A stretch of DNA of 32,000 nucleotides from Candidatus Heimdallarchaeota archaeon B3_Heim (lineage in GTDB: Archaea; Asgardarchaeota; Heimdallarchaeia; Hodarchaeales; Hodarchaeaceae). The position numbers and the translations under genes were made by a program. Below the pieces are notes generated by a model, which worked only from the letters and a program-made list of their open reading frames with translations, made no database searches and was not told the DNA's origin. The stretch covers positions 30,001 to 62,000 of the forward strand of contig NJBF01000024.1 in assembly GCA_003144275.1 (NCBI GenBank), in the 5' to 3' direction. Shown piece by piece: positions 3,001-31,745 of the stretch (position 1 is its first letter; each line of letters opens with the position of its first letter).

Positions 3001-4430
3001 GAGAATACGACTTTACAGATATGGTATAATGACTCAAGGAATAACTCAATCGAAAGTGCATTAATCTCAGTTAATGGCGATGGTCAAAATGTGAGCTATG
3101 ATTCTAATTCAGGTGCTTATTACTATCAACTAAACAGCACTCAGTACAACGGAGTGGGAGACTATCTCAATCTCAACATCACTGCTTATCGAACTTATTA
3201 CCAAAATCAAACGCTTTACTTTGACCTGACAATAAAACCAGCAGATACCTCTTTTGATAACGCATCTGTCGACCCTGTGGACTATCCTATTGATGTCACA
3301 AATGGGTCTGCTTATTACTTCTGGGTTACCTGGTTCAGTGAATACGGAGATCCGTTGAACGACTCGGATGGAGTTGAAAGTTCTTCACCAGATGTCATAT
3401 TGGACTCTACGAACCCAACAACAGGGAATCATACATTTAAGTTTGTACCCACCACAATCGGCCCAATCAATGTCACATTGATCTTCCAAATCAGTAATTA
3501 TCTTACTGCTTTATTTCATATTAATGTCACTAGTATAGAAAGTACGAATCTGGTGGTAAATGAGACCAATATAGTGTTAATTTGGCGGGAAAATGCTACA
3601 TTACAGATTTGGTACAATGATTCTGCAATTACTCCAATTCCGAGTGCTACAATCATAGTAGGCGGAGATTATGCTCACCCCGCTGTGTATGATCCTGGTT
3701 CAGGAGCTTATTATTATCAGCTCAATAGCACTCAATACAGCGGAGTAGGAACCTATCTCAATCTCAATATCACTGCTTACCGTTCCTACTATCTAAACCA
3801 AACGATTTATTTTGACCTGACCATCAACCCAGCAGATTCGTATATTGATACTGCATCTATTGACCCTGTAGACTATCCTCTTGATGTCACCAATGGATCT
3901 GCTTATTACTTCTGGGTCACCTGGTTCAGTGAGTATGGAGATCCGTTGAACGACTCAGATGGAGTTGAGAGTTCTTCATCAGATGTTGTATTAGACTCTA
4001 CAAACCCAACAACAGGGAATCATACTTTTAAGTTTGTACCAACATCCAATGGCCTAATCAATGTCACTCTTACCTTTCAGATTAACAATTACAATACTGC
4101 TATCTTTCATATTAATGTCACTAGCATTGAAAGTACGAGCTTAACGTCAAATGAGACAAGTATCGTTTTGAACTGGCGGGAAAATGCTACACTACAGATT
4201 TGGTACAATGATTCTGCAATTACTCCAATCCCAAGTGCAACGATAATCATAGATGGTGATTATAGTCACCCCGCTGTGTATGATCCTGGTTCAGGGGCAT
4301 ATTACTATCAGCTCAATAGCACTCATTACGGAGGAGTAGGAACCTATCTCAATCTTAATGTCACTGCTTACCGTACCTATTATCTAAATCAGACGCTTTA
4401 CTTCGATTTAATCATAAACCAAGCAGATTC
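1..4430 (+). repeat. Intragenic tandem array: 7 full units of 591/588 bp plus a half unit
   Basis: Unit starts read directly at 1, 592, 1183, 1774, 2362, 2953, 3541 and 4132 (spacings 591, 591, 591, 588, 591, 588, 591). Each unit has an A half (TSL..N.T.IVL.W.EN.TLQIWYN...YFDLTI) and a B half (PADSSI...DYPL..TNG..Y.FWV.WFSEYGDPLNDSDG...NHTFKFVPT...NVTSIE). Confidence 0.95.
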
Positions 4431-7368: not shown

Positions 7369-10300
7369 ATGACTCATTGGAAGAAGATAACTAAGAAATA
7401 TTTGCCTAACCTGTTAATCATTTCGTCATTAATAATAACAATCATACCAATAAATATGATAACATCAATTTATCTAATTGAAAGTGTAGAAAAGGATATT
7501 TATGGTAATTCGATCTTGAAGGGATCTGAAGGATTTACCAAGATTCCTAGATTGACACAAGAATCTTTTACCTACTTTTCTTATGGAGGTGAGGGAAGGG
7601 GTGAAAATCTTGACCTTTCTTCTCAACCTTTTAACAATAGATTACCAGATTTCGCTATTAGATCTCAAAAAGGGGAAGGTGGAAGCTCTTTCACAGTTGA
7701 AGATTATTTAACTCTAACGGGGAGTGATGCTGTTCCTGTAAATGATAATCATTGGCAAACAAATCCAGAAGAACATGAAGACCAGTATCCACTAACCATT
7801 CCAGCAAATTTTGTTAATTCTTCATTGACGCTGAACATTTCCGATGTCATAGCTATAGATGACTGGCGATTGATTGAAAATGACAGTGACTCAGCTGACC
7901 CCCGTACTTCCACAATTTTTTCTGAGTTTGCGCAGGAATTTGTGGTTGAGGAAGATTATGTTAACGTCTCCTCACTTCGCTTGTTCATCGATATGGATGA
8001 TACGGATGGGGGTGATGGGCAGAAACCCCATGGAAAGCTTTTACTTCTGAATGACACCTCAGGATCCCCTGATGATAGTGACGTGCTTCATAGTCAAGCT
8101 CTAGAAAGCCATTCCTCCATAGCGGGACTACTTGATGGAAATGATTGGGCAGGTTGGTTGGATTATTCTATTTCCCCCGAAGTGATTCTTCCGAAAGGAA
8201 CGTATTGGTTCGCTTTAAATGATACAAAGGATGGGGGTACGGGAAGCTGGAATTGGCACACCGTGGATGATAGTGGTCAAATCGATAATGGAGATGTCTA
8301 TTTCAAATTTGATCATGGAGATTCTTGGGGACCATATATCGCTTGTGATATCGTCATGATGCCCAAAGTCTGCCCAGTTAAGAATATCAGTTCCACCTAC
8401 CCAGCGAAAGAATATACTGATCCAACAGCGTTGGTATTTCAGTATAAAACATCAATTGACGCTACAAATTTGAGTACATTTACTATGTTCGAGGGAAATA
8501 TGACCAGTGATAACATACACACTTTTAATGTAAATACCTCTGTTAATTTCACGTTATCTTGGTGGATTGAAGTCAATTACACAAATAATCCTATTATCCC
8601 CTCAGTTCACTATTTTGTGGAAAACACAACAACATTACCAAAATGGAATCTTACTTTTGTTACAAATATTGTTTCTACAGTCTATAACATTCGAAATCGT
8701 TCCATAAATGTTTTTAATTTACCTAATGATTGGGCTGAAGGAGCAATTTTCCATGATGGTTCATTAGTTTATAATTCAACCAATTCTGGAGGATTTAATG
8801 GATCTATAGGTTATAATGATGGAGATAGTAACCTGATTGTCAACGCTTCTACTCTTTCTGGAACAAAAACCTGGGATATTTCCTTTAATGCACCTAATTA
8901 CATTACAGAGTTCAACTGGTTTGATCAGATTCTTGGATCAAATGTTACTTTCGCCACTTCTATGGATACACTTAAACCAAAAATTACATTTAAAACACCA
9001 AATGAAGGAGGGTATAATTTTAGTGTCTGGATTGAGTCTCAATCAGGAACGAGGATCTATACGGATTGTAATAAAACTGTGGGTGAGATAGCTAATGATT
9101 GGAACATTACGGAAACAACTGCATCGTTACCTGTAGTCAATGGAACTTATCAGACATATGCATTCTGGGAGAATACCACAGAAAATCAAGTGGGCTTCTA
9201 TGCTCGCAATATTACTGTTTTTATCCATACTACACCTATTATAAACGCCCCAACAGAGGTAATTGAAGATACTTCATTAGAGATTATAGTCTATTATAAC
9301 GCGACTCACAATTCAACTGGAGTAAATAATGCTAATGTGACTGGTATGCCAGATTGGGGGGATCAAAAACCCGTTCAATTTGAACATTCATATTCTCCTC
9401 ATGGATATTACAACTATACATGGGATATTAATAGTTCTCATTTAGCAGGCCAACAACTCAATATAACAATTTTTCTTGAAATGCCTTGGCATATAAACCA
9501 TACAGTTGTTTGGAATACAACTGTTGTCTATACCAGTACAATCACGGCATTAGATGTTCCAAATCCTTTGATTTTAGAATACGGACAGAGTTACCTTCTG
9601 AGAGTCAATTATTCATCGGGAACCACATTTATCTCTGGAGCTACTATGATTGTAGATGGAGATAATGAAAATTTTACAGAAGAACCGAAACATTTCTCCT
9701 ATCTGCTATACACAACAAATTACAATAGCGGGGAAAGTTATTCTAATCTACTTATTCACCTCAATAACTCGGGTTATCTTTCGCAAGAATTGTATTTCAA
9801 CTTGACCATCACGGCGGGGCCAACAAGTGTTCATCAGGCCTATACACCTATAATAGCCTCTATTTATTATACTGAGAGTTATTCATTTGCTGTGTTCTAT
9901 GAAAATACTGTGGATAATGAAGGAATCACAAATGCGGATTCTTCTACCAGTCATCCATCAGCGATTGATTTCTGGTATTCTAATTCAAGTGGATATTACT
10001 TTTTCAATTTGAGTTCAAGTTCGCTATCTCTAGGTTCTTATACAATTAACGTTACTCTTAATCATTCTATCTATCAAGAAAATTTCATATTACTGACATT
10101 CAACATTGTGGAAATGTCTACACAACCTTTAGATTCTTATAGTATTAGTAGTGATCAAATTATGGTAGAAGAAACCATTACAGTAACTATAGATGAGTTT
10201 CAAACTTACAAATCAGATAGCATTGGTACAATAGATAACGCATCAATTCTGTTAAATGGCTCCTCTGTTGATCCTAGTCTTGTTTCTTTTTCATCAAATG

Positions 10301-11658
10301 CTCCGTTTTCAATAGTACTAGACACAGCAGGTGTCCAATATGGAAAATACAATATGACGATCATTTTAAGCATTTATGGATATGAAAACCAAGCAATTTC
10401 ATTTAATGTTTCTATAGATGGATATGAAACAGAAATAAGTGTTGAAATAAAACCTGGAACGAACATCCGACAAGGTGAAGACATTATTTTTATTGCTACT
10501 TTAGCTTATGTCACTGAAGGTGGAGCTGGAGCGGGGGTCACTCAACAGGTTCCCCTAGGAAGAGTAATTATCACCTTTTATATTGTATTAGAATACGATA
10601 ATGGGACTACACAAATCTACGAGGGAACAGAACTGACTGATGATTCAAGTTATCGAGCTACGTACACTATTGATGGTATCTATACTATAGATGCTGTTAA
10701 ACTCACAAACATTACAATCCACTCATCTCCTGGCTTATCAGGCTTACCTTATACTTATAAGATGTCAGCTACTGAATTAGAAACCTATGAAATCCTTCCA
10801 CCAGCAATAGACATTTTTGAATTAATCACTACTGTTTTAATTGCTGTGGTAGTTGTATTGATCTCTTTAGTCATTGCAGTTAGCACTATTCGTGTATTTC
10901 GTCGTAGAAGAAGATCCCGTAAACAACTCATTTTAAGACATGATATTGCTGTTGAGCAAAGCTTTGAAGACATAAAATCGATTCGTTTAATTTTAGCTCG
11001 TCATCAATCAGGCTTACAATTCTATTCAGAAAAAACCATTGCTGAGCTCCAAACAGATACTGATGCTTTGTCTGGTATGAGTGCTGCTTTGTCCTCTTTC
11101 ATGGAAGAACTGTCAGAAAGCATGACTTCCCAGTCTGAGGAGGTAAAAGAGCGTGATAAAATTGAATTTCTCAGTCGTGAGGGTTTACACATGTTAATTT
11201 GGCACGGTAATCATTCCAGTTTTATCATTATCTCCGAGGTGCGATTACCTGAGTATTTCCAATCTCATTTGAAAGCTTTGGGAAACGAACTTGAGGATAA
11301 ATACACGGCTGAATTGCAAGACTTCTATAGCAGCGACCAAATCCCTAATACCGTTGTTAAGAAGATGGTAAGGAAGTATATCCCTCTCCACTACTTTTCT
11401 GCTTACGTAGCAAACGAAGGAGTTCTCACACTTGATTCTGTGAAGTTATCACGAAAACAGGCTAAGATGTTCAACGAAATTAAGAAGGTGATGTTTAAAA
11501 TTGAAGGAGCCCATTATTTCTTCTCTGAACAAATTATTTCGCATCTTTCCAAACGGTATAAACGTAGTGAAGCCATAGAATTCCTGGATCAGGCGATTAA
11601 AATCAATCTACTTATTGAAGCTGAACAAGAAGATTTACTGCAGTTGACTAAACTTTGA
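7369..11658 (+). CDS. Large single-pass membrane glycoprotein with Ig-like ectodomain and cytoplasmic longin-like plus probable wHTH domain
   Basis: N-terminal hydrophobic signal/anchor; sequon-rich ectodomain; TM helix LITTVLIAVVVVLISLVIAVSTIRVF (~10822-10899) followed by RRRRRSRK. The cytoplasmic LILARHQSGLQFYS...DALSGMSAALSSFMEEL...IEFLSREGLHMLIWHG..SSFIIIS pattern is typical of longin/roadblock-type folds. Confidence 0.8.
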   Translation: MTHWKKITKKYLPNLLIISSLIITIIPINMITSIYLIESVEKDIYGNSILKGSEGFTKIPRLTQESFTYFSYGGEGRGENLDLSSQPFNNRLPDFAIRSQKGEGGSSFTVEDYLTLTGSDAVPVNDNHWQTNPEEHEDQYPLTIPANFVNSSLTLNISDVIAIDDWRLIENDSDSADPRTSTIFSEFAQEFVVEEDYVNVSSLRLFIDMDDTDGGDGQKPHGKLLLLNDTSGSPDDSDVLHSQALESHSSIAGLLDGNDWAGWLDYSISPEVILPKGTYWFALNDTKDGGTGSWNWHTVDDSGQIDNGDVYFKFDHGDSWGPYIACDIVMMPKVCPVKNISSTYPAKEYTDPTALVFQYKTSIDATNLSTFTMFEGNMTSDNIHTFNVNTSVNFTLSWWIEVNYTNNPIIPSVHYFVENTTTLPKWNLTFVTNIVSTVYNIRNRSINVFNLPNDWAEGAIFHDGSLVYNSTNSGGFNGSIGYNDGDSNLIVNASTLSGTKTWDISFNAPNYITEFNWFDQILGSNVTFATSMDTLKPKITFKTPNEGGYNFSVWIESQSGTRIYTDCNKTVGEIANDWNITETTASLPVVNGTYQTYAFWENTTENQVGFYARNITVFIHTTPIINAPTEVIEDTSLEIIVYYNATHNSTGVNNANVTGMPDWGDQKPVQFEHSYSPHGYYNYTWDINSSHLAGQQLNITIFLEMPWHINHTVVWNTTVVYTSTITALDVPNPLILEYGQSYLLRVNYSSGTTFISGATMIVDGDNENFTEEPKHFSYLLYTTNYNSGESYSNLLIHLNNSGYLSQELYFNLTITAGPTSVHQAYTPIIASIYYTESYSFAVFYENTVDNEGITNADSSTSHPSAIDFWYSNSSGYYFFNLSSSSLSLGSYTINVTLNHSIYQENFILLTFNIVEMSTQPLDSYSISSDQIMVEETITVTIDEFQTYKSDSIGTIDNASILLNGSSVDPSLVSFSSNAPFSIVLDTAGVQYGKYNMTIILSIYGYENQAISFNVSIDGYETEISVEIKPGTNIRQGEDIIFIATLAYVTEGGAGAGVTQQVPLGRVIITFYIVLEYDNGTTQIYEGTELTDDSSYRATYTIDGIYTIDAVKLTNITIHSSPGLSGLPYTYKMSATELETYEILPPAIDIFELITTVLIAVVVVLISLVIAVSTIRVFRRRRRSRKQLILRHDIAVEQSFEDIKSIRLILARHQSGLQFYSEKTIAELQTDTDALSGMSAALSSFMEELSESMTSQSEEVKERDKIEFLSREGLHMLIWHGNHSSFIIISEVRLPEYFQSHLKALGNELEDKYTAELQDFYSSDQIPNTVVKKMVRKYIPLHYFSAYVANEGVLTLDSVKLSRKQAKMFNEIKKVMFKIEGAHYFFSEQIISHLSKRYKRSEAIEFLDQAIKINLLIEAEQEDLLQLTKL

Positions 11659-12904: not shown

Positions 12905-12926
12905 TCACATTAAAGGTTGATTGTTC

Positions 12927-14156
12927 ATGCGTGTGTTACATGTTCAAGGAAAAAAACTAGTTGAAATAAACAAGAAAAATGGATCCTTTGAATTCTTGAA
13001 TGGGGACGTATATATCATTGATAATTCTGATGTCTCCGCAGGCCTCAAGAAAAAGGTGTTCATCTGGTTAGGATCTCAAGCATATGCTGATGATAGAGCA
13101 GTTGGTGCTTGGGCTGCAAAACAATTGGATCTCGCTGATAAAGAAATAGATATCGACACTGAAGTCGAAGGAAATGAATCAGCTGAGTTTAAAGGATTAT
13201 TAGAATTCGTAGTCGTGACAGGAGACACACCTGGCTTTCTAAAGCACGTAGAAGTAAATAAAGAAGACATTAGCTATGCTCTTTACAGAGTCCGTGATAC
13301 TGATCTTTCAGATGGTTCATCATCAGATGATATAGCAATTGAAAAAGTACCTTTGAACCGTGAAAGCTTTGTCTCTGATGACGTATTTGTATTGGATGCT
13401 TTCGATGATCTGTATGTCTGGGTTGGTGCCAGCTCACAGATCGGTGAAAAAGTTGCAGGAAATCGTGTGGCACGGAAATTAGATGTAGATCGTGATAGAA
13501 CCCCCATGGTTTACCAAATTAGAGAAGGGTACGAACCAGAGGGTTTTTGGGATCTTTTTAATTCCATAAGCAGCAGTGGTTTAACACGGAAAGACGATTC
13601 ATCTGCTATTAGTGCAAGTATGAGTGGTTCTCTTACTGATCTAACTGCTCCAGTAGAACCAGCAACACCTCCTGCTGAATTAGCTCCTCCACCTTCTAGT
13701 ACTTCAACAGGTGAAATTTCAGGTCCACCACGAGAAGAACAATACGTTCCAAAACCTCCTCCAATAAAAGATGAACCTAAACCAAAACCCGAACCTACAC
13801 CCCAACCAGTTCAGACTGGTTTCGGAGTAGCGCCCACAGCCCCCGTACCATCTAGAAAGACCCAATATACTTTATATTATGTCGACGGTGAATTTACTGA
13901 ATTAGGGGGAAGTGAATCTGCAACTCTTGAGATCAATGAGTCCACAAAGACAGCTGTTCTTTCATTTGCGGGGGGGTCAAGTTTAATAGCCCAAAGAACT
14001 GCTGGCCGCCAAGCACGAGGTATTTGTAAATCAGGTTTCGCTGTTAAGGCAGGTTACAGAATTGGCATAAAATGTGACCTTCAAGAAGTTCGTGGGGAAG
14101 AGGACATGGAACAGCGAGTTCAAAGATATAGAGAAGAAGGACGCAAATACGTTTAA
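12927..14156 (+). CDS. Gelsolin-family actin regulator: two gelsolin domains, Pro-rich linker, degenerate third gelsolin-like domain
   Basis: Domain 1: FLNGDVYIID...VFIWLGSQA...EVEGNESAEF. Domain 2: SFVSDDVFVLD...LYVWVGASS..GEK...REGYEPEGFW. The ATG at 12927 is preferred to the TTG at 12921 in the ORF track. Confidence 0.88.
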   Translation: MRVLHVQGKKLVEINKKNGSFEFLNGDVYIIDNSDVSAGLKKKVFIWLGSQAYADDRAVGAWAAKQLDLADKEIDIDTEVEGNESAEFKGLLEFVVVTGDTPGFLKHVEVNKEDISYALYRVRDTDLSDGSSSDDIAIEKVPLNRESFVSDDVFVLDAFDDLYVWVGASSQIGEKVAGNRVARKLDVDRDRTPMVYQIREGYEPEGFWDLFNSISSSGLTRKDDSSAISASMSGSLTDLTAPVEPATPPAELAPPPSSTSTGEISGPPREEQYVPKPPPIKDEPKPKPEPTPQPVQTGFGVAPTAPVPSRKTQYTLYYVDGEFTELGGSESATLEINESTKTAVLSFAGGSSLIAQRTAGRQARGICKSGFAVKAGYRIGIKCDLQEVRGEEDMEQRVQRYREEGRKYV

Positions 14157-18347: not shown

Positions 18348-19136
18348 TTAGATGTACGTTTTATCTGGTTTACCGATTTGTTTTTCATCATCAACCGCAG
18401 CACTAGCTTGTCCTCTCATCGATAGGGCTAATTGTTCAATTTTTTCAGCCTGAGCTAGAATTGGTTCTATCCCAATATTTAACGATGGAACTAGTTGATT
18501 TAAAACTTCAATAATACGGGCAGCTGTTCGTATTTCAGGATAATGTTGCCGTACTTCCCCCAATAAAACGATAACCTCAGATTTATTGAACCAACCTTCA
18601 TTAAGTAATACCGCACTTAACCCCTTAATCACACCATGATTCAAGGGGGGGATTTGTTTAGAGTCCAATATCGCTCTACATGAATCAGTTGTTCCCACTC
18701 CGAAAAGTTTCACAGGTAATTGCTGTGGAGAATGTGCTTGTTCACTAACAAATCCTTCTATGGATAATATTCGACTGATTCCTTTCTCTTTTGCCCAGTT
18801 AAAAATTTTTCTTCCAATTTCACGAGTAATGGGAGCATACTGGGGTATCTCTGAGGCAAGAAGAGCGATTTTAATATCTTCATTTTTATTCGCATAAATG
18901 CGTATAGGAAATTTGGGTCTATTGAAATATACCATACAAACTGAGGGTAATTGACTACTATCTCCTACAGCCACCTGATCATAATTCCAATGTTCTGGTC
19001 TCCCACCAGCCTCTAGAATTATGTTAGCAACTATCAAAGCTAAACTACTTGTTGAAGGAAAACACTCAATTAGGGTTCCTCCAGCTAGGTCAATATCTGC
19101 AATGTCTCGTATCTCAAAATCATGAATAGCTTGCAT
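18348..19136 (-). CDS. PAC2-family proteasome assembly chaperone (PbaA/PbaB-like)
   Basis: GGTLIECFPS, P.FPIRIYA, LLASEIP, ILSIEG, FGVGTT, G.I.GLSAVLL...VIVLLGEV..HYP..R.AA. Confidence 0.85.
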   Translation of the reverse strand: MQAIHDFEIRDIADIDLAGGTLIECFPSTSSLALIVANIILEAGGRPEHWNYDQVAVGDSSQLPSVCMVYFNRPKFPIRIYANKNEDIKIALLASEIPQYAPITREIGRKIFNWAKEKGISRILSIEGFVSEQAHSPQQLPVKLFGVGTTDSCRAILDSKQIPPLNHGVIKGLSAVLLNEGWFNKSEVIVLLGEVRQHYPEIRTAARIIEVLNQLVPSLNIGIEPILAQAEKIEQLALSMRGQASAAVDDEKQIGKPDKTYI

Positions 19137-24630: not shown

Positions 24631-26802
24631 TTACTTCTTTTTCATGGACTGTTTTTTATTCCGAATTTTAATGCCCTGAAAGGCATCAACCAGCGTTTCA
24701 TATAGTAATTCAATCAATAGCGGTATTTCTGTCTCAGAGAAACCTAGGGCTCTAGCAATTGCTATATCCAAATTTTCTCTCTTACTTTCATATATTTGGT
24801 CTGGAAGGGCCTTTACTTTTTCGGATCTGAGAATATCAAATGCCTCTAAAATATATTTTATGTCATTTGAGGAGCATTGAGAAATATCTAGGAAGATTTT
24901 CTCTCTCATATAATCAATGATTTGTAAACGACCATATGAACCACTAATCTCCCTTCTACTATTAATAAAGAGCAAAAAATAAAACGATGAATTCAACCAC
25001 GCCCCCAAAAATTTAGATTGGTGGTGATTTTTGTCAGTTAAGACGAAAAAATTCTTAGAAGCAGTTTTCTTCTCATCTAAGAAGAGTACATTATTAGTTG
25101 CACTAGTCAATCCAAATTTATCAACAAAGAACAGATATCCCCAAGGTTTCTTTGTCGTTAATTGATCTTCAAGATGATTTATCCATCTGGTTTTGAATTT
25201 CTTCCTTGCTGGATTCGCGTAATCTTGAGTTTTCCTAATATAAGTTTTCACTGGAGAAGTTAACTGATTTAATGGCTCTGAGACAGAAAGCGCATAATCT
25301 GCAATAGTTGGTGTTATGTACCCTTGATAATTACTCTGTTTACGTAAAGCGCTTACTAGATATTTCTCTGGTAGAATTAATTTTTCTTCTCTTGATATTA
25401 ATTCATAACCTTCATTTTTCTTCACAATTTGTGTCCAGATTTTATTTGGTAAGAAAAAGAAACCAGGACCATACATTTCAACCCCCCGTACGATCTTTAG
25501 ATCTAACTCTTCACCAGATCTTATTTTATTAGTTTTTAACAATTTCTGCCTTAGATCTAATATGTTTTCACTGTGAAAGTATCTCATCCAATTCCATTCA
25601 TTAAGCAGGTGTTTGGAATGAATTAATCGCGTAGATGAGATATTTTGTTGATTTTTTATAGAATTTCCGCAAATAAGAGAAAACTTAATCCCGTAATGAT
25701 TATCAGATGTTCGTTTAGTAGCAACTAAGATCAGTTCTTTGAAATCACTGCCTTCAGAAAAAGATTTAATCTCATCGGAAGTAAGAATTGAGTCAATTTC
25801 ATATTTTGACATCAAATAATTTTGAATACCTTTGGAATAATTTGACAAAAATGTTGATACAGGTAATATTGCACTCAGCGTTCCTCCATGTTTGAGAATC
25901 TGATCTGCTAGAAGAATAGAGTAAATGTGCAGTCCTGGTTGTCCAATTAGATATTTAATGTATTTTTGTATGAGGGGAACTAATACCTTTCTTTGACTGT
26001 CATCAATTCTGTGTGTTCTCGTGAAGGGGGGATTCATTAATACTAAATCAAAATCATTATCAAATGGTAACGAATTACTTCTCAATCTTGTTGGTAATCT
26101 TCTAAAAGCATCACCTATGGTCGCAATAAGTATACTAGGATCCAAATTATGTTTTTGCAATTTGATTAATATTCGAGAATATGCAATTACTACGGCAGAA
26201 GGAACAAGATCATTAATCCAAATAAGACTCGGAAAATTCATAGACATATTTTTTTCTTCTAAATAGGCCGAAATTAATCTTCCTGATCCACAAAACGGAT
26301 CTATGATTTTGGTAAACGACTTCTCCGTAAGATTTGAACAGATAATTCGTGCGGAGGGTAGTGTAGTATAATTAGCCGCTAATTTTTTCCGATAATTTCG
26401 TTCTAACGCATTCTGCACAATTGTACCAAAGATGTCACCATTGAGAATAGGTTCAATTTCTAGCGAATGGGGGGTGAAAAGAGAAAGGTCTTGTTTCAAA
26501 TCGGCCAGATAACTGAACACTTCTTTCAGAAATTTCCATAACGATATATTTTTTTCATATTTCCTTTCTAAAAATCTTAAACTCTCCATAACTGGTTCAT
26601 AATTATTTATCCTATCATTCTCTTTTATCAGTGATTTTATTATCCATAATCCTAAAGAAATAGAAATGATCAGTTCTTCTTTCGTTGAAATCAATTTTGG
26701 TAAAGAATCAAATCGCTTTTTATCATCAAAGGATTTAATCCAGTCATTGACATCCCTTTCTAATGAATTTTCAAACAATTCTGGATCTTGAATGCATTCC
26801 AC
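24631..26802 (-). CDS. N6-adenine DNA methyltransferase (gamma class, with C-terminal specificity region)
   Basis: DIFG......RKKLAANYT, motif I IIDPFCGSGRL, motif IV VLMNPPF, in gamma order, followed by a long TRD-like region. Confidence 0.85.
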   Translation of the reverse strand: MECIQDPELFENSLERDVNDWIKSFDDKKRFDSLPKLISTKEELIISISLGLWIIKSLIKENDRINNYEPVMESLRFLERKYEKNISLWKFLKEVFSYLADLKQDLSLFTPHSLEIEPILNGDIFGTIVQNALERNYRKKLAANYTTLPSARIICSNLTEKSFTKIIDPFCGSGRLISAYLEEKNMSMNFPSLIWINDLVPSAVVIAYSRILIKLQKHNLDPSILIATIGDAFRRLPTRLRSNSLPFDNDFDLVLMNPPFTRTHRIDDSQRKVLVPLIQKYIKYLIGQPGLHIYSILLADQILKHGGTLSAILPVSTFLSNYSKGIQNYLMSKYEIDSILTSDEIKSFSEGSDFKELILVATKRTSDNHYGIKFSLICGNSIKNQQNISSTRLIHSKHLLNEWNWMRYFHSENILDLRQKLLKTNKIRSGEELDLKIVRGVEMYGPGFFFLPNKIWTQIVKKNEGYELISREEKLILPEKYLVSALRKQSNYQGYITPTIADYALSVSEPLNQLTSPVKTYIRKTQDYANPARKKFKTRWINHLEDQLTTKKPWGYLFFVDKFGLTSATNNVLFLDEKKTASKNFFVLTDKNHHQSKFLGAWLNSSFYFLLFINSRREISGSYGRLQIIDYMREKIFLDISQCSSNDIKYILEAFDILRSEKVKALPDQIYESKRENLDIAIARALGFSETEIPLLIELLYETLVDAFQGIKIRNKKQSMKKK

Positions 26803-27040: not shown

Positions 27041-28828
27041 ATGCTAAGTCTGAAATCAGCAATTTATATAATCATAGTCAGTATTATATCGGCTAGCTTA
27101 GTCTCCTCATTGGTAGTAATGAATACATTGTCAACTTCCTCACTCCCAACTGAAATTGAGGACAATGCCGAGGATAAGTTACTTATTACAACCACAATTC
27201 AAGCCCGTCAAATTGCCTCACAATTGGGCAGAACGGAATCTGTTATCAACGCGATGAGTGCTTTTGCAGAGCAAATATGGACTGATACTACGATTCCTGA
27301 CATTCCTAGTTTTTATCATGACGAAAACGTGCTTAATAACCCTCCAACCGATGTTTATTATGATGAGGTTTACGAGCGAAGACTTTCTCATCTCTACTCG
27401 GGTTATAAGATCGCCCCAACAGCATTTGAGGAATCATATCAAGACAGTTATTTAACAAGTATTCAAGAAACTGAAAATCCTTTATCACACATTAACAGTA
27501 CGGTGATGGCTGCAATCAACCGTTCAGCAAAAATGGACATGGTTTTCCGACAGCTCTATGAGGCTTATCCAGAACATGTTTGGCTCTATATGGGGTACGA
27601 GTATGGCTTTCATAGATCTTTTCCCTGGCATGGGCCATATTCTCGTACTTATGATCCAAGGACACGTCCTTGGTATATCGGAGCAATTACTGGAGCGAAA
27701 GATGCGGTTATCATCATGGATATAAGCGGAAGCATGCAGGGTACTCCACTTACAAATACCAAAACTGCAATGAAATCCGTACTGAAAACATTAGGACCTA
27801 AGGATCGATTTACTGTTCTCTCTTTTTCTGCCGATGTAGATGAGTGGGACAATACTTTACAAATCGCTTCTCCTTCAAATATCAATGATGCCTCTTCTTA
27901 CATCGATGATCGTAGCTCGGGAGGAAACACAAATATTAATAGCGCACTTCTAGAAGGTCTTGAAATTTTAGAAAAACATGGAACCTCTGATCGCACACCC
28001 ATGCTTATATTCATGACTGATGGTGAAGCGACCTCAGGCATAACAGAATCTGATTTAATATTATCTAACGTCGCTACTGCGAATGTAATGGGAGCTAGAA
28101 TGTTTGTTTTTGGATTAGGTACTGAAATTGATCAACAGCTCTTACTAAACCTTGGATCTCAAAATGATGGAGGGACAGTTTTTGTGTTCGATTCTGAAGA
28201 TCTAACAGATGCTATGAACCTTTATTATAAATTTTTTACCTCACAAATTGATAATGCTATTAGTTGGTCATGGCCTTACGTAGATGCGAGTGGTTGGGGT
28301 ATAGTAATAACTGCTTCCAAGCCAGTAACAGTTAATGGTACTCTATTAGGAGTCGTTGGAGCAGATTTAACTCTCAATTCACTCATAGACACACTTGCAG
28401 ATTTACAGCCTTCAGATAATGGTTACAACTTCATCTTTGATACAGGTAATATAGCTCTAATCCATCCTAGCTTTACCGATCTACCTATTGGAGATTGGCA
28501 AGAAGAAGAAGTAAGAGTACCTATTTCTACATTGGAAAGTTCCTCAAATAGCTTTATCTCTCTAGTTGATCGTGTTAATCTTGGGATCCCTACAGCAGGT
28601 ACAGTCTATTATGGTACCGAAAAACGTGTTGTGGCAATGGCTCCAATTGGAGAAACTTCCATGCACTTAGCTTCTGTAGCCCCAATCTTAGAATTTCTTG
28701 ATCCAACAACCATTACTGCATTAAAAGGAGTTAGCACCTTCGCTCTGCTTTGGCTTGGAGGCAGTATTTCTGTAGGTACAATAGCTGCACTAGTATTAGT
28801 GATAAAATTCAAGGAGGACTTTCATTGA
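27041..28828 (+). CDS. Membrane-anchored dCache_1 protein with inserted VWA domain (alpha2delta/CACHD1-like)
   Basis: TM at both ends. YDPRTRPWY (27650) runs directly into a VWA domain (KDAVIIMDISGS MIDAS, GGNTNI, FMTDG), after which dCache resumes (SWSWPYVDASGWGIVITASKPV...GVVGADL, GYNFIFD..G.ALIHP). Confidence 0.9.
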   Translation: MLSLKSAIYIIIVSIISASLVSSLVVMNTLSTSSLPTEIEDNAEDKLLITTTIQARQIASQLGRTESVINAMSAFAEQIWTDTTIPDIPSFYHDENVLNNPPTDVYYDEVYERRLSHLYSGYKIAPTAFEESYQDSYLTSIQETENPLSHINSTVMAAINRSAKMDMVFRQLYEAYPEHVWLYMGYEYGFHRSFPWHGPYSRTYDPRTRPWYIGAITGAKDAVIIMDISGSMQGTPLTNTKTAMKSVLKTLGPKDRFTVLSFSADVDEWDNTLQIASPSNINDASSYIDDRSSGGNTNINSALLEGLEILEKHGTSDRTPMLIFMTDGEATSGITESDLILSNVATANVMGARMFVFGLGTEIDQQLLLNLGSQNDGGTVFVFDSEDLTDAMNLYYKFFTSQIDNAISWSWPYVDASGWGIVITASKPVTVNGTLLGVVGADLTLNSLIDTLADLQPSDNGYNFIFDTGNIALIHPSFTDLPIGDWQEEEVRVPISTLESSSNSFISLVDRVNLGIPTAGTVYYGTEKRVVAMAPIGETSMHLASVAPILEFLDPTTITALKGVSTFALLWLGGSISVGTIAALVLVIKFKEDFH

Positions 28829-30084
28829 AATCATACTATGGGTTCTCACGTTTCTTGGAAGATTCTGAAGATTGGAAAGCTATTATGGGTGGGTTGCTAG
28901 TAGCGATTATTATTATTTCTACTGCTTGCGTTGGCATTTTTATTCTTAGTTCTCAACAAGCAATGATTTTGGAAGATACCCCACTCCGACAGGTAGAAGA
29001 TTTGCTTCATAACCAAGCAATAGAAAGCGCAGAATCTCTAGATGTGTTTTTTTCACGAATTGAAGGAATTACTAAGGTTGTTGGTGACTATGCTACCCAA
29101 TTGTGGGAAAAAAATGACTCTACTGGAAGACCAGTTTATTATCATAATTCAACATTTAATGCACCAACAGACTTCACTTATTCAGCTAAGCATTTCCAGG
29201 GTGTATCCTATACTTTTTCTGGTTATAAAGTCGCTCCCTCTGCTTACAACAACCAAAGTGATTACCTCACCCTAGCTGACGACCAAACTTTTGGTGATTG
29301 GTCTCCAGAAGTTACTCATACAATCAATCTATCAGCTGATATGGACTTCGTATTCCAACCTATGTATCAATCAATGGATGAAATTCTTTGGATTTACATG
29401 GGGACAGAGGTAGGTGTCCATCGATCTTATCCATATCACGGACCTTATAGCAAAGATTACGACCCCCGAATACGTTTATGGTATTTAACAGCTCTAGATA
29501 CAGCTACAGGAAAAGTAGCCTTTACGACGCCTTACGTCGATGCCAGTTCTGGAAAAGTAATTGTCACTAGCTTATATCCAGTTCGAGATCAGAGTGAGAC
29601 AACTATTGGAGTTGTAGGAATTGATTTCAAACTTACTACTATTCAATCAGCTGTAATGGAGATCAGTGTACGGAAAACTGGTAGAGCTTTTTTAATAAAT
29701 CGAGATTTTGAGGTACTAGCCCATCCTGCTCATACCTTACCAAACGCTACATGGCGAGAAACAGATCTCCAGGTACCTATTACAACGTTAGAGACGAATA
29801 ATGAAGAATTCCTTGATATTCTGGACCAAGCTCGAAATTACATTACAGTCCAAGAAATAATTGATTATGGTGGTTCCCTAGGAAAACAAATAGTTTCTTT
29901 GGTACCAATGAACAAAACTGATTTAATTCTCGGTTTAGCTCTTACACAACATGATACAACTGCCCCAACGGTCAAAATCTTTGAAAATTTCTTCTTTCTT
30001 GGACTAATAGCGATAGATATTGTGTTAGGGGTTGTAGTTGTAGCAGCATTTATTCAATATCGAAAGCTAGCTCACGAAATGTAA
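28825..30084 (+). CDS. Membrane-anchored dCache_1 amino-acid-sensor-type protein without VWA and without cytoplasmic output domain
   Basis: YDPRIRLWY-x-TTPYVDASSGKVIVT...GVVGIDF, GRAFLIN....VLAHP; TM at both ends. The likely start is the TTG at 28825, overlapping the upstream TGA (TTGA), with AGGAGG at 28812-28817. The ORF-track start at 28750 is unlikely. Confidence 0.88.
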   Translation: MKSYYGFSRFLEDSEDWKAIMGGLLVAIIIISTACVGIFILSSQQAMILEDTPLRQVEDLLHNQAIESAESLDVFFSRIEGITKVVGDYATQLWEKNDSTGRPVYYHNSTFNAPTDFTYSAKHFQGVSYTFSGYKVAPSAYNNQSDYLTLADDQTFGDWSPEVTHTINLSADMDFVFQPMYQSMDEILWIYMGTEVGVHRSYPYHGPYSKDYDPRIRLWYLTALDTATGKVAFTTPYVDASSGKVIVTSLYPVRDQSETTIGVVGIDFKLTTIQSAVMEISVRKTGRAFLINRDFEVLAHPAHTLPNATWRETDLQVPITTLETNNEEFLDILDQARNYITVQEIIDYGGSLGKQIVSLVPMNKTDLILGLALTQHDTTAPTVKIFENFFFLGLIAIDIVLGVVVVAAFIQYRKLAHEM

Positions 30085-30275
30085 AAGATGGATTTAAGAA
30101 ATAAGATCAGAATTACTAGTACTGAAGAGTGAAGTTACATCGTAGAGTTAGATATGAGAAACCGCTCTCATTAAACAGAATCTTATGGTTAGAAACTGAA
30201 TCTAATTCAAAAAAACTTCCAAAATTGATCACATCCCAAATCAAAATTCCATAAAGGGAATTGGGTTGTTCAGGA

Positions 30276-31745
30276 ATGGCAAAGAAGTATTATTGTGGCC
30301 TTTGCGAGACCAGTCATAATGCCCTAAAATCAAGACATCAGTGTAACCAATGTGCTCGTTTCTACTGTGATTCAGCACTAGAGGATGCACGAACAGTTGG
30401 TGTTACAACCTGCGTTTTTTGCGAAGGAAAATTATCTCCATTTTTTCTTACAACGAGCTTACAATATCTTGCGGAAGATAAAAGAGTAGTGGATTCTGAG
30501 GGGAATAGTGAGGATACAACAAGTTATTCAGAATTCAGTTTAACTCAAGAAAATCTGGAAATTTCTTCTGAATCGGCCACATTTCCTTCATATAATATTG
30601 AGATTGATCAAAGGGATTTGGAAATAATCTGGCTGCTGCAAGAAATAGTTGCCAAAGAGATTCCTTTAATAGAAAATGAAGATCTCATCCAAACAAATTC
30701 TGGATTCATTGTCAAAAATCAGCGTATCGTTGGTTTAAGCCTTTTCAAACTAGAGATAAGGCGAGTTCCTGTTGAGATTGGAGAATTAACAGAGTTAGAA
30801 AGGTTATTTTTACGAGAGAACAGAATTGATAAATTACCTGACTTGAGTAGTCTAAAGATCTTGCAAGAACTAGATCTAAGCTATAATCAATTAAGAGAAT
30901 TACCTGCTACTCTGGGTGATATCCCCTCCCTTACTACTCTGATTTTGAACAATAACCGACTAAAGAAAATTCCTATTTCTCTCACTAGCCTACAACTGAA
31001 GAAATTAAATTTGCAGGATAATCCTTGTTGGAATCATCAGCCTCGTAGTCGAAAATTGCAGCGTTGGATAGATAATTTAGTAAGTAATGGTTGTGAAGTA
31101 TTCGATACTCCTAGAGATGGTGAATACCTAAATATTGTCTTATCCCCAAGTGAAGTGGAATTCTTAGAAGAGATAGAACGATTAATTGATAAACAAATAA
31201 CGCATTCAGAAACAGCTGTCAATATATTAAATTTAGAACAATTAAAGAATTTTAAATTTGGATTTTGTTCTTCGTTCGAGAGAATTAAAGCTTTAGGATT
31301 AGGAAACCTAGGCCTTTCAACTTTACCACGTTCCATTCAGGGTTTAAATGCTATTGAAATGATAAATTTATCTCAAAATCGTTTTAGTCAACTTCCACTA
31401 GAATTATTTACCTTGGTGTCCTTACAAGGACTCAATTTAGAAGATAATATACTCGATACACTTGATAGCGGGATTAGAAGTTTAACAGAATTAAAAATAT
31501 TAGATCTACAAACGAATAATCTTAAACGAGTACCCAAATCGTTAGGAAATTTAAGAAAACTTGAAATTCTTATCTTGAAAGACAATGATCTTATATCACT
31601 TCCTTCTTCCCTTAAAGATCTTCAAAACCTCAAAATGATCGATCTTCGTGGGAATCCTATATGGAATGAACGAGAAGATCGGCGTGAATTACAAAAATGG
31701 ATTCGTGACTTAAAAAAACGACATTGTGAAATTGTAGGTTTATGA
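30276..31745 (+). CDS. Leucine-rich repeat protein with N-terminal RING-like zinc finger; two LRR modules
   Basis: CGLC-x12-CNQC-x4-CDSA-x11-CVFC, then LxxLxLxxNxLxxLP repeats in two blocks, each closed by L.(D/G)NP.WN...R.LQ.WI..L....CE. ATG 30276 is preferred to TTG 30261. Confidence 0.88.
   Translation: MAKKYYCGLCETSHNALKSRHQCNQCARFYCDSALEDARTVGVTTCVFCEGKLSPFFLTTSLQYLAEDKRVVDSEGNSEDTTSYSEFSLTQENLEISSESATFPSYNIEIDQRDLEIIWLLQEIVAKEIPLIENEDLIQTNSGFIVKNQRIVGLSLFKLEIRRVPVEIGELTELERLFLRENRIDKLPDLSSLKILQELDLSYNQLRELPATLGDIPSLTTLILNNNRLKKIPISLTSLQLKKLNLQDNPCWNHQPRSRKLQRWIDNLVSNGCEVFDTPRDGEYLNIVLSPSEVEFLEEIERLIDKQITHSETAVNILNLEQLKNFKFGFCSSFERIKALGLGNLGLSTLPRSIQGLNAIEMINLSQNRFSQLPLELFTLVSLQGLNLEDNILDTLDSGIRSLTELKILDLQTNNLKRVPKSLGNLRKLEILILKDNDLISLPSSLKDLQNLKMIDLRGNPIWNEREDRRELQKWIRDLKKRHCEIVGL

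Follow-up and report, generated by a model that had tools for sequence, protein, structure and literature searches.

The alpha2delta subunits of CaV channels are the targets of gabapentin and pregabalin. In all four of them (alpha2delta-1 to -4, CACNA2D1-4; e.g. PDB 8hlp_F, 7vfs_B, 8fd7_D) a VWA domain is inserted in a hairpin of the first of two dCache_1 domains of the same chain, the VWA-bearing one being nested in the other. CACHD1 (VWFA and cache domain-containing protein 1; 8s7c_A, 9eq6_A) has the same VWA-in-dCache_1 core, two dCaches per chain and a true transmembrane anchor, and binds FZD5/LRP6, which are absent from archaea.

In the only systematic study of this design (Gumerov et al. 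2022, PMC8915833) it is confined to eukaryotes, where it is broadly distributed, and the VWA insertion is dated to about the last common ancestor of eukaryotes (LECA), after import of the Cache domain from bacteria. The same study defines an amino-acid-binding motif, Y-x4-R-x-W(Y) ... Y-x27-34-D, reports that CACHD1 has a degenerate MIDAS and a first dCache without this motif, and describes protist proteins with a single dCache_1 plus VWA. The latter (e.g. P0096 from Arcella, 536 aa) are the nearest to the protein described below by domain inventory; they are nevertheless eukaryotic, share a clade with eukaryotic proteins that have two dCaches, separate from the Asgard one, and have no known operon partner. 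No paper tying Asgard archaea to the VWA-in-dCache_1 architecture was found in the literature.

Two further groups resemble the protein in one part only. The PctA-type dCache_1AA chemoreceptor domains (5ltx, 5t65) share its Cache fold and amino-acid motif, but have no VWA insert. The ITIH heavy chains and bacterial VIT-VWA proteins (6fpy) possess the VWA nearest to its own in sequence, structure and tree, but as a free-standing domain accompanied by a VIT domain, with no Cache host.

A VWA-in-dCache_1 protein in a Heimdall-class archaeon

Hodarchaeales and other Heimdall-class archaea are the closest known archaeal relatives of eukaryotes. The DNA examined here (the window) is a stretch of 32,000 nt from Candidatus Heimdallarchaeota archaeon B3_Heim (GTDB lineage Archaea; Asgardarchaeota; Heimdallarchaeia; Hodarchaeales; Hodarchaeaceae), corresponding to positions 30,001-62,000 of the forward strand of contig NJBF01000024.1 (GCA_003144275.1); coordinates count from window position 1. 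Gene A and its parts are as follows, with the basis of each assignment in brackets.

27041..28828, + strand: gene A (P0001), VWA-in-dCache_1 protein of 595 aa (ORF, translation, Pfam, AF2 model, structural matches)
27056..27121, + strand: N-terminal membrane helix, residues ~6-27, running into the long stalk helix 37-81 (hydrophobic stretch; model helices 4-32 and 37-81)
27149..27688, + strand: first part of dCache_1, residues 37-216, comprising the stalk helix and the first half of the distal module (VWA_N 153-195; alignment to alpha2delta-1 177-247; profile dN ending at 216)
27650..27676, + strand: N-terminal half of the amino-acid motif, Y204, R209, W211 and Y212 in YDPRTRPWY (PMC8915833 definition; family conservation)
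27689..28240, + strand: inserted VWA domain, residues 217-400, of ITIH/VIT-like sequence (Pfam VWA 1.9e-18; ITIH1 structural match; trees)
27719..27733, + strand: MIDAS DxSxS, D227, S229 and S231 (DISGS, D227-S231; invariant in 24/24 family members)
27929..27931, + strand: MIDAS threonine T297 in GGNT (T in 19/24, S in 5/24)
28019..28021, + strand: MIDAS aspartate D327 in TDG (invariant, 24/24)
28241..28708, + strand: remainder of dCache_1, residues 401-556, comprising the second half of the distal module and the membrane-proximal module (dCache_1 399-545; profile dC 401-556; alignment to alpha2delta-1 and PctA)
28277..28366, + strand: C-terminal half of the amino-acid motif, Y413 (28277-28279) and D442 (28364-28366), 28 residues apart (Y[x27-34]D rule of PMC8915833; alpha2delta-1 alignment)
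28733..28804, + strand: C-terminal membrane helix, residues ~565-588, followed by a 7-residue tail and no output domain (translation; model helix 555-589)

Pfam matches in gene A consist of a VWA domain at residues 221-388 (1.9e-18), flanked by dCache_1/MCP-like_PDC_1 (399-545) and by the C-terminal part of VWA_N (153-195). Residues 37-216 are the counterpart of the eukaryotic 'VWA_N' region. The first-pass annotation of this DNA had claimed that the region aligns with that of alpha2delta; it aligns to alpha2delta-1 177-247, and its VWA_N score in Pfam, 24 bits, is under the cut-off of 34.7. A membrane helix is located at either end of the protein, and the whole region in between is computed to be extracellular. 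The VWA sits without linkers in the alpha4-beta4 hairpin of the distal dCache_1 module, the loop that also hosts it in alpha2delta and CACHD1, and in the AF2 model (pLDDT 88.1, pTM 0.78) it lies within the distal Cache module and not outside it. A pseudogene or chance ORF was considered and dropped in view of the length of the gene, its operon and the invariant residues kept across the family down to 21% identity.

In a phmmer comparison against PDB chains, a single stretch of alignment joins residues 153-484 of gene A to human alpha2delta-1 (8hlp_F 177-533; E 1.4e-18). The alignment is gap-free across the N-junction (YDPRTRPWY...DISGS in gene A, YDVRRRPWY...DVSGS in alpha2delta-1), so that the offset between the motif Y and the MIDAS D is 23 in both proteins, in agreement with the equal RxWY-to-DxSGS spacing noticed earlier. 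The alpha2delta-1 sequence quoted in the first-pass annotation is identical to the 8hlp_F sequence printed in this alignment, and its peptide and coordinates proved exact (in frame in 27041-28828, with DISGS at 27719, the T of GGNT at 27929 and the D of TDG at 28019). According to Pfam and profile boundaries, both junctions coincide in Asgard and eukaryotic proteins: at the N-junction, model position 65-66 is the last of the Cache profile and the VWA profile begins at 1-5, and at the return junction VWA position 183-185 is followed by Cache position 3-5.

Structural comparisons gave a similar picture. In a Foldseek search of the PDB the best 14 matches of the gene A model belong without exception to alpha2delta-1 or CACHD1 (E 1.6e-32 to 3e-22, TMq 0.59-0.65; CACHD1 at 7e-27), these two being the only whole-length matches, and the first match after them covers the VWA alone (TMq 0.30). 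Whole-length superpositions by VIA yielded Z 28.9 with an rmsd of 6.2 A over 503 residues and Z 28.5 with an rmsd of 4.5 A over 475 residues, and Z 26.7 for CACHD1. Whole-model matches in the ESM Atlas (TM 0.51-0.68) are exclusively eukaryotic clusters, one of them from a diatom, whereas bacterial clusters match the VWA only (TM ~0.35). A language-model search of the Atlas produced scores below 0.9 throughout, directed towards generic Cache clusters, and its hits are treated as leads only.

The MIDAS is complete (D227, S229, S231, T297, D327), as had been proposed, and all of its residues except the threonine are invariant in the 24 family members. The amino-acid motif is complete as well (Y204, R209, W211 / Y413, D442) and split by the VWA insert; Y413 and D442 align with the Y and D of the alpha2delta-1 motif, and in alpha2delta the whole split motif (YxxxxRxWY...Y...D) aligns residue for residue and the MIDAS is likewise complete, as seen in alpha2delta-1 and -2. 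Across the Asgard A family the N-terminal half is conserved as Y 23/24, R 18/24, W 23/24 and Y 24/24, and the C-terminal half as Y 15/24 (plus three F) and D 20/24, R209 and Y413 being the positions not kept in divergent members. Gene A has the design of an alpha2delta/CACHD1-type VWA-in-dCache_1 module, with hairpin, motif and MIDAS as described in PMC8915833, and, unlike CACHD1, with both motif and MIDAS intact. This intact motif and the VWA-less partner gene described below had gone unmentioned in the first-pass annotation.

Like alpha2delta, gene A is extracellular, membrane-anchored and devoid of an intracellular signalling domain. It differs in having a single dCache_1 in its chain, in being anchored by two membrane helices, and in lacking the alpha2/delta cleavage, the GPI-type anchor region and the Cys-rich pattern; Pfam searches gave no match to VGCC_alpha2 (PF08473) at E<=0.1. 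The close match to alpha2delta claimed earlier stands for the insertion site, the flanks and the MIDAS, but the VWA itself is nearer to ITIH/VIT-type VWAs, and strict orthology with alpha2delta does not follow. ITIH1 matches the VWA of gene A with 80.9 bits and superimposes on it with Z 26.8 and an rmsd of 1.8 A over 184 residues at 30% identity; no VIT domain (PF08487) was matched by Pfam in gene A.

Gene B and the proposed role of the A-B pair

Gene A is followed by a VWA-less paralog and by a third gene on the same strand.

28809..28816, + strand: AAGGAGGA, ribosome-binding site of gene B, within the end of gene A (read from the sequence)
28825..30084, + strand: gene B, VWA-less dCache_1 paralog of 419 aa with two membrane helices (TTG start overlapping the stop of gene A, CATTGA)
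30261..31745, + strand: protein without a membrane helix, made up of a Zn-ribbon (Prok-RING_2-like) and two LRR blocks (Pfam; synteny in loci L005, L006 and L007)

The gene B start and the gene A stop overlap by 4 nt, and both this overlap and the length of 419 aa recur in relatives, suggesting from the layout of the DNA that gene B is translationally coupled to gene A. Gene B follows gene A in all 11 loci examined, and in some genomes the two are fused in a single chain (P0016, 993 aa; P0026); in P0016 the fusion is tandem, not nested, and carries a Zn-ribbon at its end. Gene B matches PctA (1.5e-15) and, in CACHD1, the second dCache, whose motif is intact (3.8e-10), and its own amino-acid motif (Y212, R217, W219, D267) is complete and found in 9/9 sequences. 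The second dCache_1 of the Asgard pair comes from a gene of its own, coupled to gene A, and does not wrap around the dCache_1 of gene A as it does in alpha2delta.

Prediction of the A-B complex gave an ipSAE of 0.67 against 0.00 for the best control, a mark that 58 of 80 solved complexes attained, as did 2 of 110 mismatched pairs. Since solved structures exist for dCache dimers and for the packed pair of dCaches in alpha2delta, this result may reflect likeness to those. The runs share at least 78% of contacts, and the pLDDT of the partner is at least 82. In the predicted complex A and B would pair along their stalk helices, leaving the VWA free.

The whole is best explained, with a probability of about one half, by an extracellular, membrane-anchored module of alpha2delta/CACHD1 type with two subunits, of which gene A supplies the one with the VWA. 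The pair would bind an amino acid, or a related ligand with amino and carboxyl groups, in its distal pockets and, with a divalent cation at the MIDAS, could clamp a third protein at one of its acidic residues. Cytoplasmic output domains being absent from both subunits, the pair is presumed to serve another membrane or surface component as an auxiliary or adhesion subunit, in the way alpha2delta serves CaV, rather than to be a classical transducer. The variation of R209 and Y413 in divergent family members counts against this reading. The metal-dependent docking on a membrane partner proposed by the first-pass annotation is a hypothesis drawn from the invariant MIDAS residues. For the voltage-gated or other channels that it had proposed to look for, an Ion_trans search of the B3_Heim genome (94% complete) returned one match of 20.2 bits, under the Pfam cut-off of 25 bits, and none above it.

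The pair might instead be a conventional sensor, in which the four membrane helices pass the signal of amino-acid binding by A and B on to a cytoplasmic partner, a candidate being the downstream Zn-ribbon/LRR protein acting on the 20-residue N-terminal tail of B, with the VWA serving only as a tether to the envelope. This cytoplasmic tail is conserved among close relatives of B, more distant B-like relatives have HAMP domains or cytoplasmic Zn-ribbon tails, the P0016 fusion ends in a Zn-ribbon, and the Zn-ribbon/LRR gene comes after A-B in L005-L007. However, the cytoplasmic tails of the window's A and B measure only ~7-20 residues. PctA has HAMP and MCP output, and dCache_1AA sensors have a cytoplasmic transmitter (MCP, kinase, cyclase and similar) after the second helix; A and B have no output domain, their tails there being 7 (A) and ~11 (B) residues long. 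The Zn-ribbon/LRR gene, moreover, adjoins A-B in the close relatives only, and its functional link to the pair is putative; in the f5 and f6 lineages it is not beside A-B, and A is preceded there by protein X (P0274), a polytopic membrane protein. We consider such a sensor highly unlikely. Protein X was not found in the B3_Heim genome with the P0274 query, and its AF2 model (pLDDT 51) was too poor for a structure search.

As a small, cysteine-poor, two-gene version of the module, A-B should be suited to in vitro work on amino-acid binding, MIDAS docking and Cache-Cache pairing.

Distribution and origin of the VWA insertion

The library search recovered 3409 proteins at E<=1e-10, with matches spanning both junctions down to 1e-53, values that place the likeness between gene A and alpha2delta far beyond chance. 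In this exhaustive search, which covered 1.84 billion representatives, every labelled match that spans both junctions and lies beyond the ~600-aa Asgard family comes from a eukaryote (Salpingoeca, Arcella, metazoan CACHD1-like proteins and eukprot entries); most metagenomic matches carry no taxon label, and the statement that the non-Asgard junction-spanners are all eukaryotic rests on the labelled subset, clade membership and Atlas taxa. These representatives and the Atlas clusters yielded no bacterial Cache domain with a VWA insert, and the best junction-spanning relatives outside the Asgard family are eukaryotic alpha2delta/CACHD1-like proteins, so that the objection of an alignment no better than to unrelated bacterial VWA-Cache proteins was not borne out.

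Within Asgard archaea the distribution is patchy and narrow (~12 of 400 genomes). Of the 21 genomes in the same genus, 4 contain full-length matches, congeners that are 94-99% complete lacking them; two more families within the class contain them too (1 of 3 and 7 of 12 genomes), and none were found elsewhere among the 400 genomes. Inside the class the family has diverged to 21-30% identity with its operon structure retained. This conserved family in Heimdall-class archaea challenges the eukaryote-only account of PMC8915833, or else represents a striking case of convergence.

The Asgard and eukaryotic clades are reciprocally monophyletic. In the VWA tree with outgroups the topology is (outgroup,(eukaryote,(Asgard, ITIH/VIT))), with support of 98/98 for the Asgard plus ITIH/VIT clade (83/92 once long branches are removed), and an AU test rejects an Asgard plus eukaryote VWA clade (lnL -15.2, p 0.0126). 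For the Cache flanks an Asgard plus eukaryote clade is not rejected (p-AU 0.746), the constrained tree being 15.4 lnL better than the quick free tree; as the latter had missed a better tree, reliance was placed on careful trees and AU tests. In the careful set the same clade is again not rejected (p-AU 0.275), and the careful Cache tree weakly groups A with B, its Asgard paralog (61/76), rather than with the VWA-bearing Cache of eukaryotes. Genes A and B are not claimed as orthologs of the first and second eukaryotic dCaches, respectively, the eukaryotic second dCache forming a long separate branch and the deep order being left unresolved by the Cache trees.

These trees could be read as the record of two insertions, a Heimdall-class lineage having independently placed an ITIH/VIT-type VWA in the alpha4-beta4 hairpin of a resident dCache_1 sensor, so that gene A would work like the alpha2delta core without being homologous to it as a composite architecture. 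The grouping of the VWA with ITIH/VIT and the rejected clade point in this direction, as do the motifs common to gene A and ITIH (TNIN.AL and TDG.pT.G.t....IL.NV, eukaryotic VWAs having indels of their own), the rank of ITIH1 as best VWA match in both sequence and structure, the position of the Cache part beside Asgard paralogs in free trees and the frequency of VIT-VWA-like genes in Asgard genomes. The termini of VWA domains also lie close together, and VWAs are inserted into other domains, e.g. in integrins. Convergence, however, would need two insertions into one and the same loop of one host subfamily (dCache_1 with the amino-acid motif), both with seamless junctions of equal length, the Cache flanks do not reject the joint clade, and the lack of a third, bacterial instance of VWA in Cache argues against the insertion being easy. 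On the VWA topology a single insertion needs a later excision that yielded the VIT-VWA family, which amounts to the same number of events as two insertions, so that convergence is no more parsimonious. Two separate insertions are possible, if doubtful.

A single event behind the Asgard and eukaryotic insertions appears somewhat more probable than not. The two sides have in common the loop, the seamless junctions, the same trio of VWA subfamilies and an M..YY terminal helix, and the Cache flanks are compatible with it; against it stand the VWA topology with its rejected clade, the weak grouping of A with B and the patchy Asgard distribution. With one event, the architecture would predate crown eukaryotes, or at least not be confined to them. 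It could then be that the A-B operon represents the archaeal precursor of alpha2delta/CACHD1, arising by a pre-LECA insertion in archaea that was followed by fusion of A-like and B-like chains (compare P0016), a scenario that we regard as unlikely in this complete form. Were it true, alpha2delta would be an Asgard-derived eukaryotic signature protein and not a LECA-era invention on a bacterial import.

The shared architecture could also reflect an ancient transfer, the module of stem or early eukaryotes having been acquired once by a Heimdall-class archaeon and split or duplicated into A-B. Such a history would fit the narrow Asgard occurrence and the broad eukaryotic one (PMC8915833 and the present searches), but Asgard sequences are not nested within the sampled eukaryotes in either the VWA or the Cache tree, and of the VIT-VWA clade, which is mostly prokaryotic, and the eukaryotic VWAs, it is the former that lies nearer to their VWA. 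The Cache of gene A, furthermore, clusters with VWA-less Asgard paralogs, some of them with prokaryote-type HAMP domains, and the depth of divergence within the class with the operon kept, together with the occurrence of PAC2 near the pair in two distant lineages, also speaks against acquisition by transfer, which is very improbable. A word-index search for longer fused relatives recovered just ITIH6 and one VIT-VWA protein.

Fold, ligand motif and metal site of the VWA-bearing Cache protein

The peptide on which the first-pass annotation based its comparison is present in an open reading frame of 595 aa (gene A), which is followed by a second dCache_1 gene (gene B).

Features of the window (coordinates, strand, description)
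1-6900, +, giant ORF of more than 2299 aa, running off the window start
7369-11658, +, giant ORF of 1429 aa, no Pfam match at 1e-4
12921-14156, +, gelsolin-repeat protein (1.3e-24), a typical Asgard eukaryote-like gene
24631-26802, -, Eco57I-type methylase, immediate upstream neighbour of A, opposite strand
27041-28828, +, gene A, ORF encoding the VWA-in-dCache_1 protein
27719, 27929 and 28019, +, MIDAS residues D227, T297 and D327 of A, from the translation
28825-30084, +, gene B, 419 aa, TTG start, dCache_1 without VWA, two membrane helices
30261-31745, +, Zn-ribbon/LRR gene 3' of B (Pfam), also at L005 3107-4576 and L007 4854-6341

Pfam places a VWA domain at residues 221-388 of A (1.9e-18), a dCache_1/MCP-like_PDC_1 match C-terminal to it (399-545) and, below cut-off, the C-terminal end of VWA_N at 153-195. 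According to profiles made from the family, the first half of the Cache stops at residue 216, the VWA occupies 217-400 and the second Cache half starts at 401. In eukaryotic relatives the Cache and VWA profile positions adjoin exactly as in A, indicating a common insertion loop with junctions devoid of linkers. Hydrophobic helices occur at both ends of the protein (about 6-27 and 565-588) and the C-terminal tail has 7 residues, so that A lacks a cytoplasmic output domain. The AlphaFold2 model, obtained with an alignment of 24 family members (pLDDT 88.1, pTM 0.78), consists of a long stalk helix, distal and proximal PAS-like modules and a Rossmann-type VWA projecting from the distal module; both model and profile boundaries thus bear out the proposed location of the VWA inside the dCache.

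The claimed closeness to alpha2delta was also recovered. Residues 153-484 align continuously with residues 177-533 of PDB chain 8hlp_F (phmmer against all PDB chains, E 1.4e-18), the human alpha2delta-1 sequence given in the first-pass annotation agrees with that of the PDB chain, and the spacing from YDPRTRPWY to DISGS in A equals, gap-free, that from YDVRRRPWY to DVSGS in alpha2delta-1. In a Foldseek search of the PDB, ranks 1-14 are occupied by alpha2delta-1 and CACHD1 (E 1.6e-32 to 3e-22, query TM 0.59-0.65, about 570 columns), the next match being ITIH1 over the VWA only (TM 0.30). VIA-align superposes A on alpha2delta-1 with Z 28.9 (rmsd 6.2 A, 503 residues) and Z 28.5 (475 residues at rmsd 4.5 A, residues 42-552 of the model matching 72-628 of the chain), and on CACHD1 with Z 26.7; the VWA alone matches ITIH1 with Z 26.8 (rmsd 1.8 A, 30% identity). 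All whole-model matches in the ESM Atlas (TM 0.51-0.68) are eukaryotic (alpha2delta-2, alpha2delta-3 and a diatom cluster), and bacterial clusters match over the VWA only.

The amino-acid motif described for PctA and alpha2delta (Y121, R126, W128 / Y144, D173; YxxxxRxWY...Y[x27-34]D; PMC8915833) is complete in A (Y204, R209, W211, Y212, Y413 and D442, with a Y413-D442 gap of 28 residues). So is the MIDAS (D227, S229, S231, T297 and D327), at precisely the nucleotide positions first proposed. Across the 24 family members D227, S229, S231 and D327 are invariant and position 297 is T or S, while R209, Y413 and D442 of the amino-acid motif are kept in 18, 15 and 20 members, respectively, making the MIDAS the most constrained feature of the family. 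Computation thus shows the topology, the composite fold, the intact ligand and metal motifs, and the coupling with B together with a predicted A-B pairing.

Distribution and relatives

The family members that have names come from Hodarchaeales, Kariarchaeaceae and other Asgard MAGs. In a survey of 400 genomes from the phylum, A had full-length matches in 4 of the 21 belonging to its own genus (several of the congeners with none are 94-99% complete), in 1 of the 3 from a second family of the class and in 7 of 12 from a third; the remaining genomes yielded only VWA-only, VIT-VWA-like genes. Identity within the family descends to 21-30%. The family is therefore narrow and patchy, yet old enough to have diverged to this extent. 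In one congener (G068, L006 1808-3595 / L016) A is split into ORFs of 195 and 370 aa by one TGA within the match; the copy is either broken or misassembled.

When 1.84 billion representatives were searched exhaustively with phmmer, 60 matches fell below 1e-30. The Asgard family of about 600 aa is followed, at 1e-53 to 1e-26, by proteins spanning both junctions, of two kinds: about 1000-1400 aa with two YDxxxRPWY motifs some 520 residues apart, and about 540-650 aa with a single motif. In both, as in the Asgard proteins, DxSGS lies 23-24 residues after the motif start. Those of these two kinds that carry labels come from eukaryotes (Salpingoeca kvevrii, Arcella intermedia, and hemichordates, cnidarians, sponges and annelids with CACHD1-like proteins), and a profile of 37 of these proteins recovered from bacteria only VIT-VWA proteins, over the VWA alone, from E-32. 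Within reach of these searches no bacterial Cache domain containing an inserted VWA was found. All eukaryotic dCache_1 proteins have been reported to carry an inserted VWA, and none of a prokaryotic set of 10,700 bacterial and 108 archaeal proteins does (Gumerov et al. 2022, PMC8915833); a literature search found no paper tying Asgard archaea to alpha2delta, CACHD1, VWA_N or Cache-VWA. The architecture of A holds and, within the searches made, is new for prokaryotes.

In four other proteins (P0090, P0113, P0141, P0146) a separate VWA follows the Cache on its C-terminal side and is not inserted in it. Also, a 12.1-kb metagenomic contig (L010, JGI 3300022707) encodes a eukaryote-type single-dCache protein with VWA (P0114, 608 aa); being gene-dense, with small genes on both strands and U-box, Sel1, AvrB_AvrC and sulfotransferase matches, it looks like a giant virus or intracellular symbiont rather than a eukaryotic chromosome.

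One insertion or two

The VWA and the Cache flanks were analyzed separately, the VWA tree being rooted with distant VWAs. The careful VWA tree reads (outgroup,(eukaryotic in-Cache VWAs,(Asgard in-Cache VWAs, ITIH/VIT VWAs))), with support of 98/98 for the Asgard-ITIH branch (83/92 after long-branch removal and realignment), and the AU test rejects an Asgard-eukaryote VWA clade (lnL -15.2, p 0.0126). Group consensus sequences agree: Asgard and ITIH VWAs have TNIN.AL and TDG.pT.G.t....IL.NV in common, eukaryotic in-Cache VWAs have their own indels, and a terminal M..YY helix is the sole feature common to Asgard and eukaryotic VWAs. This grouping would favor convergence, that is, two independent insertions; these would, however, have had to hit the same loop of the same host subfamily with the same seamless junctions twice, and convergence is considered less likely than one origin. 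Also, on the inferred VWA topology a single insertion followed by an excision founding the VIT-VWA proteins requires two events, as many as two insertions do.

In the Cache-flank tree the five clans (Asgard with VWA, Asgard without, eukaryotic first dCache, eukaryotic second dCache, PctA) form an unresolved star, with support of 61/76 for A plus B. A clade of Asgard and eukaryotic VWA-bearing flanks is not rejected, either in the large set (p-AU 0.746, the constrained tree being 15.4 lnL above the quick free tree) or in the careful set (p-AU 0.275). The probability given to one origin of the Asgard and eukaryotic insertions is about 0.5-0.6; this includes a small share for an improbable case, transfer from a eukaryote. 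Each of the two groups, Asgard and eukaryotic, occupies one side of a branch in all trees, which excludes that either recently acquired the protein from a sampled lineage of the other.

The A-B pair and its candidate partners

The start of B overlaps the stop of A (CATTGA) and is preceded by a AAGGAGGA site. A and B are the sole dCache_1 genes of their genome, and a B-type gene lies directly 3' of A in all 11 loci examined (own genus and two other families of the class), mostly overlapping it by 4 nt. Among solved structures B is closest to the amino-acid sensor PctA (1.5e-15) and next to the second dCache of CACHD1 (3.8e-10); the amino-acid motif of B does not vary across nine relatives. Its cytoplasmic N-terminus of about 20 residues (window 28825-28890), acidic and with a conserved W-K-A-I-M, is kept in the three close relatives and could be a docking peptide.

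Two metagenomic proteins fuse A- and B-type units. P0016 (993 aa, ENA metagenome) joins an A-type ectodomain to a B-type one with no intervening membrane helix; a single membrane helix and a Zn-ribbon tail complete the chain at its C-terminus. P0026 (863 aa, Logan) has an A-type unit with the VWA precisely deleted (RPWY...SDVFWSCPY), two membrane helices and a B-type unit; its VWA-less A-type unit is nested within the A clade of the Cache tree (support 100/99), indicating secondary loss. Prediction of the A-B ectodomain complex supports a heterodimer, with an ipSAE of 0.67 versus 0.00 for the best control (in calibration, 58 of the 80 solved complexes attain this mark and, among mismatched pairs, 2 of 110), although the pass may reflect likeness to the already solved Cache dimers and packed dCaches of alpha2delta. 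The runs share 78% or more of their contacts, with a partner pLDDT of 82 or higher, and the predicted interface follows the stalk helices (residues 46-86 and 167-176 in A, 60-89 and 172-184 in B) without involving the VWA.

In the proposed mechanism, the heterodimer would bind amino acids in its distal pockets while the cation-loaded MIDAS of A would capture an acidic residue of a third protein, much as alpha2delta engages an aspartate of the CaV alpha1 subunit (PMC9901441). Since neither A nor B has an output domain, the pair would modulate or tether that protein, by analogy with alpha2delta and CaV alpha1. A search of the genome for Ion_trans, prompted by the channel question in the first-pass annotation, gave no match above cut-off. 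In two other Heimdall-class families A and B form an operon with a preceding gene X (P0274), stop and start codons overlapping (L008 3874-6000; L018-L024). X encodes a conserved, polytopic membrane protein (about 700 aa) that contains two beta-sandwich inserts, matches nothing in Pfam and is the most obvious candidate membrane partner in those families; its AF2 model is unusable (pLDDT 51), and a homologue was looked for and not found in the genome of the window.

Alternatively, but with low probability, A-B might relay a signal to the cytoplasm: the Zn-ribbon/LRR gene after B and the HAMP and Zn-ribbon tails of distant B-like proteins speak for this, the missing output domains against it. The Zn-ribbon/LRR product is cytosolic; its Zn-ribbon is N-terminal and Prok-RING_2-like, and it has two blocks of leucine-rich repeats. 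Its gene follows B in this genus, being next to A-B only in the close relatives. Among the distant, VWA-less B-like proteins, HAMP follows the second membrane helix in P0083, P0100 and P0110, and a Zn-ribbon ends P0103 and P0148.

A PAC2 proteasome-assembly-chaperone gene occurs 1-8 kb from A-B both in the window (18348-19136, -) and in a distant family of the class (L008 3051-3782), and may be the remnant of a conserved neighbourhood.
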